A stretch of 64,000 bases of DNA from Patellaria atrata CBS 101060 (lineage: Eukaryota). The notes beneath the pieces are model-generated. The model worked only from the letters and a program-made list of their open reading frames with translations, did no database searches and was not told the origin of the DNA. Shown piece by piece: positions 9,724 to 15,455 of the stretch; within the stretch, counting starts at the first letter, position 1, and the number at the start of each line of letters is the position of its first letter. The stretch covers positions 833,817 through 897,816 of the forward strand of contig MU006090.1 in NCBI GenBank assembly GCA_010093705.1, given 5' to 3'. A program made the translations under genes and the position numbers.

Positions 9724-10915
9724 ATGGTAAGCATCCTCCAGGGCTTTTCTGAAGCCTATGCCTTCTAGTCACGCGACGAACTCATTGTTGGTCCTTTGGA
9801 TCCCCTTGATGCTCTGGTATGGCTCATTCCATCAACCCATGTTCAGCATTGCTGAGTGGGATTGATGATGAATATGGCTTGAGCGGAAATGTGCAGCAAT
9901 GCATCTTCTTAGCTCTTTAGAGACTTTAGAAGATTCAGTGAACAAGATTCGCTAATCTTCTCTTCTCAATGACAGCCTCCAAAATCGGGAAAGAAAGTAG
10001 CCGCAGCTCCATTCCCCCAGGGGAAGGCTGGCACAAAGAAGCAAGCCAAGGTAGGTTACTATTCTCTCATTCCCTACGACTCCTCTAATACGTATCTCCT
10101 AGAACCCTCTCCTCGAGAAGCGACCTCGCAACTTCGGTATCGGCCAAGACATTCAACCTAGGCGAAACCTTTCGCGCATGGTGAAGTGGCCCGAGTATGG
10201 TACGTGTAGTTAAATCACTAGCTTACGCATCCCTTCTAATGTGATACAGTCCGTCTACAACGCCAGAAGAAGATCCTCAATCTCCGTCTCAAGGTTCCTC
10301 CCGCGATTGCACAGTTCCAGCAGGTCCTTGATCGGAACACCGCTGCCCAGGCCTTCAAGCTCCTTACCAAGTATCGCCCTGAGACTAAAGCAGAAAAGAA
10401 GGAGCGTCTACACAAAGAAGCAACCGCCGTCTCTGAGGGCAAGAAGAAAGAGGATGTCAGCAAGAAGCCTTACGCTGTCAAGTATGGATTGAACCACGTT
10501 GTCGGTTTGATCGAAAACAAGAAGGCGTCTCTCGTATTCATTCCCAACGACGTTGATCCCATCGAATTGGTTATTTTCCTCCCTGCCCTTTGCCGCAAGA
10601 TGGGCGTCCCATACGCTATCATTAAGGGCAAAGCCAGACTTGGTACCGTCGTTCACAAGAAGGTAAAGTTCTCGATGTCTGATTTTCTCATCCACTTGCT
10701 GATCATTCCTTAAGACTGCCGCTGTTGTTGCTTTGACCGAAGTCCGTAGCGAGGACAAATCCGAGTTCTCCAAGCTCGTTTCCGCCATCAAGGAGGGCTA
10801 TGGAGCTAAGTCGGAAGAGAGCAGGCGTCACTGGGGTGGTGGTATTATGGGTGCTAAGGCAAACGCTAGGCAGGACAAGAAGCGCAAGGCTTTGGAAAAC
10901 GCTATCAAGATCTAG
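9724..10915 (+). CDS. RPL8: 60S ribosomal protein eL8 (L8/L7a), multi-exon
   Basis: ATG-only first coding exon, 249-nt intron 9727-9975, then [76 protein letters not shown]. Confidence 0.97.
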
Positions 10916-11188: not shown

Positions 11189-11210
11189 AACGCGACATAA
11201 TTCAACGCGT
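11189..11210. promoter_or_regulatory. MCB-like elements (ACGCGA and ACGCGT) just upstream of the 11253 gene
   Basis: aacgcga at 11189-11195 and a perfect ACGCGT at 11205-11210, ~45 bp before the ATG. Confidence 0.45.
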
Positions 11211-11252
11211 CTCAAGGGCTCGTCACCGCTCTCGCTCAAGGTCGGTATTGTA

Positions 11253-12440
11253 ATGGCGCCACCTGCTGTACGTCGTCCATACTCTGCAATGTTATGCTTT
11301 GGTATCTAATTTTTCCATACGTTCTCATAGACTCCGTCTCCGCACCTATACAATCTGCAGTCTCGCAGCAAACCAAAGTTCGTACAACAAACTCAACCTT
11401 CGCCGTCCAATCGGGATGGGCAGAAACCAATAACTGTATTGAGACCTACCCCGAAGTTCTCCTTCAGAGCCTCAAAATCTACCGAGCCACAGCATCATGC
11501 GTTTAAAGCCCCTTCTGCCACCCAACTATCAGGACCTAGAGCGAGGAAATTAGAGCGGATAGAAAGTATCGAAGATGAGGGTGGAGATCAATCCGATCCG
11601 GCAGATGAACTTGATCATGTCCTGACCAGCATTGAAAGAGATGAGCCCCTGAACGAACAACAGCCTTTGGAAATCCCCCATGCTCATGACGAAGAAGAAG
11701 AGATGCTGTTCACCGTAGAGAAGGGTCATAAAAGACGCCGTGTTCTCCACACCACTACCCAGCAGAGTGTAATTGAGGATGAAGACATCCACAATATTGC
11801 ACAAGAAATATTGACTACACGTCAGATTACACATCATTCGAATTCGATTCCAAGTGCAGCAAATCCACCAGCTACGCCATCTCAAGCTTTCCATCGCTTT
11901 GTTTTAGGCCCGTCCCCAGCCCCTTGGGGCCGTGGTCAACCTCTCATTCAAGGCCTCAGGAACGGGACACCTACTACCGCATCTACTCCCAAGCCTTCCT
12001 TTCTCAAACCATCCATACGGGACTCTACGACATCCACACCGCTTCCTGATTCATTCTCACCCCACCGCCGAGGCCAGAAGTTTGTTCCTGGCGGCATGGC
12101 AGCAACAGTCGGTCAGTGGATTGTGGAAGTCGGCCATACGGCAACTACACAAAAGCGTGGAAGTAATACAGTAAATGAGCACGGGCTTATCGGAAGAATA
12201 CGAGTTAAAAGTGTAAGTTTAGCTCAGGGACCTAGTTTTATCAAGGGGGAGATCTCTCCCACAGAAAATGAAAACACGAGACTCAGGGAGATCAATGTAG
12301 TGCTGGTTGGAAAAGGAAGAAGTGGTAGGAATATAGTTCAAGAGGGTGATGTAGTTGGAATTTGGGCACCCAGCTGGGATATCGAGATCAAGTCTCAAAG
12401 ATGGGCTATTGGCGTCGATTGGGGTTTGCTCAACGCATGA
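11253..12440 (+). CDS. Uncharacterised protein: disordered N-terminus plus predicted beta-rich (OB-like) C-terminal domain
   Basis: ATG 11253 (MAPPA), GTACGT..CTAAT..TAG intron 11268-11330 joins in frame to the long ORF; FSPHRRGQKFVPGGMAATV and GDVVGIWAPSWDIEI..W.IGVDW blocks. Confidence 0.8.
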
Positions 12441-13687: not shown

Positions 13688-15455
13688 CTAGACCGCGGAC
13701 TTTTCCACACTGTGAGTCTCCTGGATTTCCTCTACAGACGAGCCATTCTGGGACCCAATATCATGCTCGAGCTGCTTGGCTGCATCGGTATTATGCATGC
13801 TTTCAGACATAAAGATAAGATCAATCTCCTCCAGTGAGCGACCGCGAGTTTCCGGGCAACAGAAATAGACTATTGTTTAGGTCAGTGAACATTCTTAGCT
13901 TAATAGAATAGAAGTACGAACCAAAAGGACCGGCGAGGACGTTGAAGACCAGGAACCATATCCAGGTCTTCCATCCGACGTTTTCATCAGCAATAGCAAT
14001 CGGACCGGCAAACACAGTAACAAAAGCCATGACCCATTGGCTGGAAATACTAAGAGCGAATCCAATGTGGCGGTAACGAAGTGGCATGATCTCCGAAGCG
14101 TAAACGTACTGTAGGCACGGATTAGTATTTTCTGAAATGGTTCAGTCGCGCCGACTTTTCTCACAGTGACAGGGCCCCATGTTGGCCCAAAGACAGCAAT
14201 CCAGCAAAAGAGCATTGCGGCTGCCGCAGCGCCCGTAGCTTCGCCCGGGGTTGAGATCAGTCCGGTAAAAGCAGCCAAGAATATTGATTGTCCGATTGCG
14301 CCTCCAATGAGCCATTTTCTACGCCCAAGTTTTTCCATAAAAATTACACCGATGATGTTTGTGATGGCGAGGACAGTTGTTGCAGCACCAGCAAGACCGG
14401 AAGCTGTCAGCGGCTCGAGACCGATATAGACCTGAAAGATCGTAGTCATATAGTAAAAGATCATATTGGTCCCAATCAAATATGCCCCACCCACGAGAAT
14501 GACACCGGTCCGGATACGACGGGCAGCTTGCAAGTCAGATGTGTCCCAGAAGAAATCTTTAATGCGCAGGCGCGCTGTATCCGCCTTCTCAAGCTCAAGG
14601 GAAGCGAGAATGTCCTTCTTCGCGGTTTCAGCAGGGCCTTCTGATGTCGTTTGATTGAACATCCGCTCGAGAACAACATCACCCTCCTCAGGTAAACCTT
14701 TGGCAAAGTAGTATCTCGGAGTATCGGGAAGGGGCCAGATGAATGCTAAAGTCAACAAAGACCAGAAAATCTGAAACGCAACTGGGAACCTCCAGACCGC
14801 CTGGCCACTAGCAAAGACCATACCGAAGTCCCTAACCACGTTAGAAGGTTGGACTCTCTGAACACTTGGATAACCTACACCCAATATGCGAGCGCAGTGC
14901 CGATTGAAGCGCATCCTATCATAAGATTGACACCCTGGCCGCGTTTATGTACATGGACGGCCATCTCTGCGACAAAAACGGGAATCATGGATGTGCAAAA
15001 TCCATTGCCGATACCCTTTTACAAGGTTAGTTAAGGCTATCTAAGCTGTGGTATTCGGCTCTACCCACGATAACCAATCTTCCAGCAAGTAATTGACCCC
15101 AGCCATAACTTGACGCAGAGATTATAGTCCCAACGATCTGTATTATCTCTCCCATGATTATCCATGTTCTTCTTCCGGCGAACAAACCAAAGCAGGAGAC
15201 GATAATGCAGCCTAACCATGACGCCAGAAGGAAGATTGATGTTGTCATTGAAATCGTCCAGGTGTCTCCGGGGAACTTCATTGCAGATTGAAACTCTGGA
15301 GTTAACAGAATGCCACCCTACACGGATTAATCCAAGGTCATTAGTATTAGGGTGAGAGCACATACGAGAACACCAGCATCCCATCCAAAGGTGATAAAGC
15401 CCAACCCTCCCGCGATGAGGGCATTTCTATACAGCTGGTCTCCAACAACCACCAT
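13688..15455 (-). CDS. MFS sugar porter family transporter, multi-exon
   Basis: FGWDAGV, GRRTWI, GRLVI, WRFPVAFQ, PDTPRY, IFYY, EKLGRRKWL, TWGPVT, PETRGRSLEEID motifs across exons. Confidence 0.92.

Follow-up and report, generated by a model that had tools for sequence, protein, structure and literature searches.

We analysed a 64,000-nt stretch of Patellaria atrata CBS 101060 (contig MU006090.1, positions 833,817 to 897,816 of the forward strand), which is referred to here as the window. It contains a two-exon gene on the plus strand, preceded by two MCB-like promoter sites, whose product is a protein of 374 aa. In window coordinates, the gene is laid out as follows.

11189..11210, plus strand: MCB-like pair 15 nt apart, ACGCGA at 11190-11195 and ACGCGT at 11205-11210, putative regulatory sites
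11253..11267, plus strand: exon 1, 5 codons from the ATG at 11253, with a similar short first exon at most related loci
11268..11330, plus strand: intron of 63 nt, phase 0, GT...CTAAT...TAG
11331..12440, plus strand: exon 2, 369 codons and stop
12213..12245, plus strand: 33-nt in-frame stretch, from the end of strand 1 to the start of strand 2 of the C-terminal barrel, treated as an intron in the public gene model P0002

The flanking genes were read from sequence as an intron-split eL8-type ribosomal protein gene (9973-10915, plus strand) and a sugar-transporter-like gene (13688-14944, minus strand). Both the upstream ribosomal protein gene and the downstream transporter were absent beside 34 related loci, within flanks of up to 3 kb.

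A sequence-only reading of this DNA had proposed a two-exon gene, and the start codon, both exons and the phase-0 intron could all be located. This model is well supported by an acceptor position common to related loci. We examined the splice site at 33 related metagenome loci and found the exon-2 start motif at 30 of them. In every one of these 30, CAG, TAG or AAG lies immediately 5' of the motif, as in the window. Most related loci also have a short first exon rich in Met-Pro. P0002, a public Patellaria atrata entry named as a hypothetical protein, is nearly identical to the window protein (348 of 359 residues) and derives from a different gene model, with an acceptor later than ours (affecting 11331-11360) and a further 33 nt spliced out at 12213-12245. 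Because this stretch aligns with residues of the relatives and covers parts of two strands in the domain model, it is probably coding and the P0002 model is probably wrong there.

The protein combines a disorder-like N-terminal region with a compact C-terminal domain. The segments below were assigned from the evidence given in brackets.

11331..12038, plus strand: disorder-like N-terminal region with short conserved motifs (composition, charge, motif counts in relatives, low-confidence model)
11730..11741, plus strand: KRRR basic cluster (K[RK]R[RK] shared by 115 of the 141 relatives with at least 300 aa)
12039..12071, plus strand: near-invariant arm ahead of the helix, Pro-Leu-Pro...Phe-Ser-Pro-x-Arg (conservation, domain model)
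12090..12161, plus strand: Gly-Gly-Met-Ala motif and helix (domain-model helix 20-41, least-error contacts, conservation)
12186..12428, plus strand: OB-fold barrel of five strands (domain model, structure searches, co-fold, conservation)
12375-12377, plus strand: invariant Trp, within the predicted Sws1 interface (co-fold, conservation)

The N-terminus had been described as disordered and acidic. It is disorder-like by composition, but its acidity is limited to residues 81-160 (net -17; about 11556-11795), and residues 1-241 have no overall acidity (29 D/E vs 27 K/R). A whole-protein Atlas model of an orthologue was of low confidence (pLDDT 0.51). The KRRR cluster is a likely nuclear localisation signal, judging from its sequence. 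The arm ahead of the helix contains a CDK-type Ser-Pro-x-Arg site. It is of low confidence in the monomer model and lies mostly outside the interface predicted with Sws1 (described below). Near-invariant Phe- and Pro-rich motifs extend over 11991-12071 (Arg-Pro-x-Phe, Pro-Leu-Pro and Phe-Ser-Pro-x-Arg), outside the predicted Sws1 interface. These pre-helix motifs may mark a second partner or a regulatory site. In the C-terminal domain, the motifs quoted by the sequence-only reading (GRIRVKSV and INVVLVGK) are present in the translation.

The C-terminal domain had a single match in the Patellaria atrata genome. An exhaustive profile search returned 688 cluster representatives at E <= 0.001, the best 150 of which were 112-456 aa long. 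In 222 family proteins the domain was located at the C-terminus, with a tail beyond it of median 0 and at most 56 residues. Among the matches listed, named members belonged to five Pezizomycotina classes (Dothideomycetes, Sordariomycetes, Leotiomycetes, Lecanoromycetes and Candelariomycetes). All named family records were 'hypothetical' or 'uncharacterized', with the exception of one long, merged-looking model. A search for longer relatives (234-2000 aa; 8000 candidates scored) gave 99 matches among those listed, one of them long. An 886-aa relative considered as a longer form of the family carries a carboxypeptidase domain and was set aside, as it looks like a merged gene model. Pfam scans yielded no fitting family (the best one covered 2 of 130 members), and PDB sequence searches with the domain and with profile A4 gave no match. 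Matches of profile A2 to PDB sequences were WD40 and ankyrin noise (E of at least 0.018).

An Atlas feature search returned unnamed clusters only, with the protein's own family at 0.93. By features, the domain resembled two further ESM Atlas clusters, both below the reliable score: one from Basidiomycota, of 298 aa (0.82-0.83), and one from Streptophyta, of 205 aa (0.81). These clusters are leads for a possibly wider range of short SPIDR-like proteins. Two sequences labelled Quercus suber (P0028 and P0095) nevertheless align closely with fungal sequences and probably represent fungal DNA within a plant assembly. Fungal contamination may be the source of plant labels in the cluster listings.

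To model the fold, AlphaFold2 was applied to the last 133 residues with a 130-sequence alignment. The resulting model (pLDDT 80.9) showed an arm of low confidence, a helix at 20-41 and five strands. When it was compared with 48,161 solved chains by VIA, the best match was the MCM9 N-terminal domain (Z 8.5, rmsd 2.9, 83 aligned), followed by MCM8/9 (8.4), PriB (8.3) and CTC1 (8.1), and by SSB, RPA, STN1 and tRNA-synthetase domains at 7-8. The top 50 rows span Z 8.5-6.8 with no solved structure standing out, and we take nearly all of these chains to be OB folds. Foldseek with the same model gave nothing at E <= 0.001, its two best rows being complement C5 chains. The VIA and Foldseek lists held no SPIDR, SPATA22, HROB or human SWS1 chain, an absence that excludes nothing. 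Because the five-stranded barrel superposes on solved OB folds, the OB fold anticipated by the sequence-only reading is established at the level of the predicted model. The OB family to which the domain belongs is not established by comparison with solved structures, which leave it unplaced.

A link to a particular OB protein came from predicted structures. The C-terminus had been likened to the OB region of SPIDR (KIAA0146; DUF4502, PF14950, plus DUF4503, PF14951), the partner of SWS1(ZSWIM7)-SWSAP1. We searched the Atlas of predicted models with the predicted domain model of an orthologue (P0008, residues 216-343). Rows 1-3 were unnamed Ascomycota clusters. Row 4 was a 'DNA repair-scaffolding protein' from Chordata, and the aligned part was PF14950 (DUF4502). 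With TM 0.59, 100 residues aligned and a score of 496, this was the only one of ten rows above the naming bar. RecJ came next (TM 0.56, score 351), and row 6 was an arthropod cluster, 10% PF14950 (TM 0.54, score 295). The SPIDR match is one row from one search, comparing model with model and using an orthologue as query. The likeness to SPIDR stands in that DUF4502 was the best named structural match, but homology was not detected by sequence. In scans in which HMMER filters discard most weak matches, PF14950 matched neither the window protein nor its relatives (0 of 15, and 0 of 130 at E <= 1). There was also no PF14950 match in the Patellaria atrata genome.

The layout of the protein recalls the first half of SPIDR. 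The window protein has 374 aa, compared with 376 positions in PF14950, and its disorder-like N-terminus runs directly into the DUF4502-like domain, as judged by composition and by the position of the domain in 222 proteins. A central 'inferred OB-fold' joined to a disordered N-terminus is described for SPIDR in the excerpts of PMC11377751 used here. The same excerpts (Schou et al.) state that SPIDR has three C-terminal OB folds and that these bind ssDNA. These SPIDR-type folds, with their zinc ribbon (DUF4503), are absent from the window protein, which ends after the first OB. A search for a separate DUF4503 (PF14951) gene gave no credible match in the genome, with a silent search control. Given that it showed no sequence match to PF14950 and has none of the C-terminal OB folds, we did not file the protein as a full SPIDR, and we describe it as a short variant resembling the N-terminal half of SPIDR. 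The word 'scaffold' used by the sequence-only reading overstates the case: the central DUF4502 domain is matched, but the three ssDNA-binding C-terminal OB folds are missing.

A disordered N-terminus followed by one or more C-terminal OB folds is also described for the recombination factors SPATA22, HROB (PF15072) and SHLD2 (PMC11377751, in part). Unlike SPIDR, none of these is the named structure match, and their absence from ten Atlas rows excludes nothing. PF15072 had no match in the window protein or 130 relatives and no credible match in the genome. The view that no fungal SPIDR counterpart is recognised held in the literature searched, where no paper naming one was found (most subscription papers were beyond its scope). 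By term search, SPIDR, Sws1 and Shu do not occur in a review of fungal repair from 2026 (PMC13451438).

A gene for a putative partner was found elsewhere in the genome.

L036:901-1824 (G000:C5): Sws1/Shu2 gene, single exon, 307 aa, with CxC...CxH and a Shu2-like fold

This gene is publicly labelled merely as 'hypothetical / SWIM-type domain'. It was first flagged by a Pfam SWIM match that scored below the cut-off because the zinc motif carries a long insertion. Its product had 936 relatives, and CxC...CxH was invariant in 117 sequences. The model (pLDDT 70.5) matched 6dex_B (Eremothecium Shu1:Shu2) with Z 10.0, rmsd 3.6, 135 aligned residues and 24% identity; the next row stood at 5.3. Foldseek placed 6dex_B and 5xyn_D (yeast Shu complex) as the top two of three rows, with weak E-values of 0.033 and 1.1, and a profile search against PDB sequences gave no match. 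From the zinc motif and the model, we read this 307-aa SWIM protein as Sws1/Shu2. On our reading of their sequences, the genome also has Rad51, Dmc1-like, Rad57-like and RAD51D-like genes. The RAD51D-like paralogue (L042:98-1725, minus strand; G000:C30) is intron-split, contains an acidic insertion and is a candidate Rad51-paralogue partner of Sws1. A PF13481 search for more Rad51 paralogues gave 12 weak P-loop matches.

Co-folding with a fungal Sws1 had been suggested from the sequence. The input comprised Sws1, exon-2 residues 215-369 and zinc, with no alignments, in three runs with 3 controls; Sws1 was the sole partner. The pair passed, scoring 0.77 in three runs compared with 0.00, 0.20 and 0.52 for the controls. 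The runs shared at least 80% of contacts, the pLDDT of the partner was 69 and the margin over the best control was +0.25. The passing mark is reached by 51 of 78 solved pairs vs 2 of 108 mismatched pairs and, among eukaryotes, by 39 of 65 solved vs 2 of 126 mismatched pairs and 0 of 79 distant genes, counts that are only rough here, as zinc was included here but not in the calibration, and predicted or disordered chains lie outside the calibration. In the control that scored 0.52 the window protein was kept and Sws1 was swapped for an unrelated protein, which signals that the surface of the modelled window protein is sticky.

Among the predicted contacts, the surest bring the helix with the Gly-Gly-Met-Ala motif and the barrel's invariant Trp against Sws1 residues 44-65. 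Overall, the predicted contact on Sws1 involved mostly residues 6-66, in the N-terminal helices, and the invariant Leu-Asp-x-Leu residues of Sws1 fall within the interface. As the co-fold used no alignments, conservation provides a separate check on this interface. Within well-occupied columns, conservation was higher at the interface than in the rest of the protein for both Sws1 (0.78 vs 0.61; p 0.005) and the window protein (0.54 vs 0.46; p 0.013). Of the 18 near-invariant columns of the window protein, only 6 lie inside the interface, and buried residues tend to be conserved in any case. No solved SWS1-SPIDR complex was among the PDB search results, making a memory-driven pass less likely, though possible. 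As a prediction, the co-fold supports binding of the window protein to Sws1.

Shu complexes comprise Csm2-Psy3-Shu1-Shu2 in S. cerevisiae and Sws1-Rdl1-Rlp1 in S. pombe. The Patellaria atrata genome resembles these systems in having both Sws1/Shu2 and Rad51-family genes. In contrast, the solved budding-yeast complex consists of three Rad51 paralogues and Shu2, with no OB subunit described in the part of PMC5727457 drawn on here, and the predicted position of the window protein is on a different face of Sws1. The Shu2 residues listed there as Shu1 contacts are 92-222. As the predicted site lies mostly within Sws1 6-66, the order of residues suggests that the Rad51-paralogue face is left free. 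Predicted Sws1 binding is in agreement with what is reported for mammalian SPIDR. Human SPIDR 1-515 binds SWS1-SWSAP1 and mediates this interaction (PMC6821187, in part), RAD51 is bound by mouse SPIDR 1-500 (PMC10164582, in part), and a SWSAP1-SPIDR-ZSWIM7 complex is backed by AlphaFold2-multimer (PMC13278138, in part). Nothing further on domains came from PMC8275761 (in part).

The promoter sites can be compared with those of the other recombination genes. MCB sites mark G1/S and repair genes in yeasts; for filamentous fungi, our literature search found no direct source. The ACGCGT and ACGCGA that the sequence-only reading placed just upstream of the gene were both located, 48 and 63 nt before the ATG. 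Across the window ACGCGT was not enriched (7 found vs 8.1 expected). Of 153 non-coding tiles, none had two ACGCGW within 150 nt and 6 had one site. The rad51 promoter also contains two MCB-like sites 15 nt apart (-204 and -189), and single sites precede sws1 (-107) and rad57 (-135). Thus, 3 of the 5 recombination genes viewed have an MCB-like site within 250 nt. None was present at the RAD51D-like gene, nor at dmc1 in the approximately 120 nt seen.

Conservation of the sites was assessed in 150 nt of promoter from 20 non-redundant orthologue loci, with shuffled sequence as background and the start codon approximated for 5. Left out of this set were 1 short flank, 9 redundant loci, 3 without the motif in view and 1 that was not a true relative. 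ACGCGT was present in 3 of 20 promoters (shuffle 0.68, p 0.027). The ACGCG core gave 14 sites vs 6.0 by shuffle (p 0.003), and 8 of the 20 loci carried it (shuffle 4.6, p 0.057), leaving 12 of 20 without a core in 150 nt. The proximal 150 nt contained 14 core sites and the distal 150 nt contained 4 (p 0.015). These values come from eight motif/span tests, several of them non-significant, and the 300-nt presence tests were mostly non-significant. Conservation of the MCB sites among orthologues is modest: core sites exceed the shuffle, but only a minority of loci carry the core.

A 10-mer around ACGCGA is common to the window gene (11189-11198), sws1 (L036:794-803) and rad51 (L038:765-786). This motif was chosen after viewing the promoters and is not enriched genome-wide (32 sites vs 40 for the reversed control). 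When 30 of the 32 loci were read, 12 lay within frames of at least 150 aa and 18 lay outside. The 18 comprise the window gene, rad51 and sws1, two loci at a distance of roughly 450-550 nt from Pob3/SSRP1-like and Hat1-like exons, and others near unrelated or unidentified frames; most copies are not at repair genes. Two adjacent ACGCGA were observed upstream of a Pob3/SSRP1-like gene (L077 around 1501; G000:C10). We regard the promoter sites as no more than mild support for the interpretation given below.

Our data suggest that the window gene probably encodes a minimal SPIDR-related, Sws1-binding subunit of a fungal (Pezizomycotina) Shu complex. Such a subunit would retain only the N-terminal half of SPIDR, namely the disordered region and the DUF4502 helix-OB domain. 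It would be imported into the nucleus via the KRRR cluster and would dock on the N-terminal helices of Sws1 by its Gly-Gly-x-Ala helix and the invariant Trp of the barrel. A Rad51 paralogue could occupy the other face of Sws1, making a three-part complex possible, and the disordered arm and short motifs may reach Rad51 or a paralogue. The near-invariant Phe-Ser-Pro-x-Arg segment could contact Rad51 or a paralogue, or take a CDK phosphate. At damaged forks and during meiosis, the complex would aid the loading or the stability of Rad51/Dmc1 filaments, and the gene may be co-expressed with rad51 and sws1 through the MCB-like sites. As the ssDNA-binding OB folds of SPIDR are missing, the remaining OB fold would be mainly a protein-binding module. 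The protein is more likely to be an adaptor than a broad scaffold, because those OB folds are absent and FIGL1 is undetected in fungi other than microsporidia, according to the relevant part of PMC4498898.

A more ambitious proposal, which we put forward tentatively and with confidence a little short of even, concerns the history of this contact. The docking of the SPIDR DUF4502 helix-OB domain on the N-terminal helices of Sws1(ZSWIM7) may be an ancient Shu core of animals and fungi. Filamentous ascomycetes would have kept a minimal Sws1-docking SPIDR with a disordered arm, and budding yeast would have lost it. The three ssDNA-binding OB folds would then be a separable animal or ancestral addition.

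Other explanations give more weight to particular parts of the evidence. The window protein could be a true SPIDR relative that has diverged and ceased to work with Sws1; the co-fold would then have passed because of a sticky hydrophobic surface, and the conserved face would bind another partner (Rad51, a paralogue or itself). We consider this unlikely. It would account for the score of the control that kept the window protein and for the 12 of 18 near-invariant columns outside the predicted interface, and FIGL1, another SPIDR partner, is undetected in non-microsporidian fungi (PMC4498898, in part). However, three runs agreed with a clear margin over that same control, the invariant Leu-Asp-x-Leu residues of Sws1 lie in the interface, and a promoter element is shared with sws1. 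It is improbable, in our estimate, that the gene encodes the fungal version of SPATA22 or HROB, or a different ssDNA factor with a single OB, working together with MEIOB/RPA or with a helicase of the MCM type. The common layout of SHLD2, HROB and SPATA22 (PMC11377751, in part) and the MEIOB-like genes of ascomycetes (PMC4830875, in part) would suit such a factor, as would the MCM8/9 OB domains, RPA and CTC1 among the top VIA rows, none of which stands out. Against this, nothing but SPIDR DUF4502 passed the naming bar in the structure search, the best Pfam family fits 2 of 130 members and the Sws1 co-fold passes.

Two further explanations separate the protein from SPIDR altogether. A fungus-specific OB protein that binds Sws1 could be a convergent fourth subunit, SPIDR-like in its work and not derived from SPIDR, and this we judge marginally less credible than a SPATA22- or HROB-like factor. 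No sequence-level tie to PF14950 was found, and a TM of 0.59 is attainable by unrelated OB folds, as illustrated by RecJ. Yet the structure search picked SPIDR before, and independently of, the co-fold, and two SPIDR-bearing clusters were among the ten rows. Finally, we see very little chance that the product is a cell-cycle-regulated OB protein with a telomere (CST/TPP1-like) or replication role that has nothing to do with the Shu complex. MCB-like sites would suit replication genes equally, and CTC1, STN1-TEN1, TPP1, Pot1 and Teb1 chains were among the fold matches. However, these chains are on a par with every other OB fold (Z 7-8), and the Atlas and co-fold results indicate SPIDR and Sws1.

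SPIDR has been studied in mammals, in which recombination is disturbed and ovarian insufficiency results when it is lost; the portion of PMC12738175 cited here describes the role of DUF4502 as not fully understood. If confirmed, an Sws1-binding, SPIDR-related subunit would supply a missing component of the Shu complex for fungi and, for a human fertility gene, a simple model. A half-length fungal SPIDR would extend the SWS1-SWSAP1-SPIDR arrangement to fungi, would provide a function for a family that is large and unannotated (688 representatives at E <= 0.001), and would make docking on Sws1 the specific task of DUF4502. The co-fold offers residue-level predictions for an interface for which PDB searches returned no solved structure, and the question becomes testable by genetics in laboratory moulds. 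If the ancient-core reading is true, the fungal model would predict the unsolved human SPIDR-ZSWIM7 interface.
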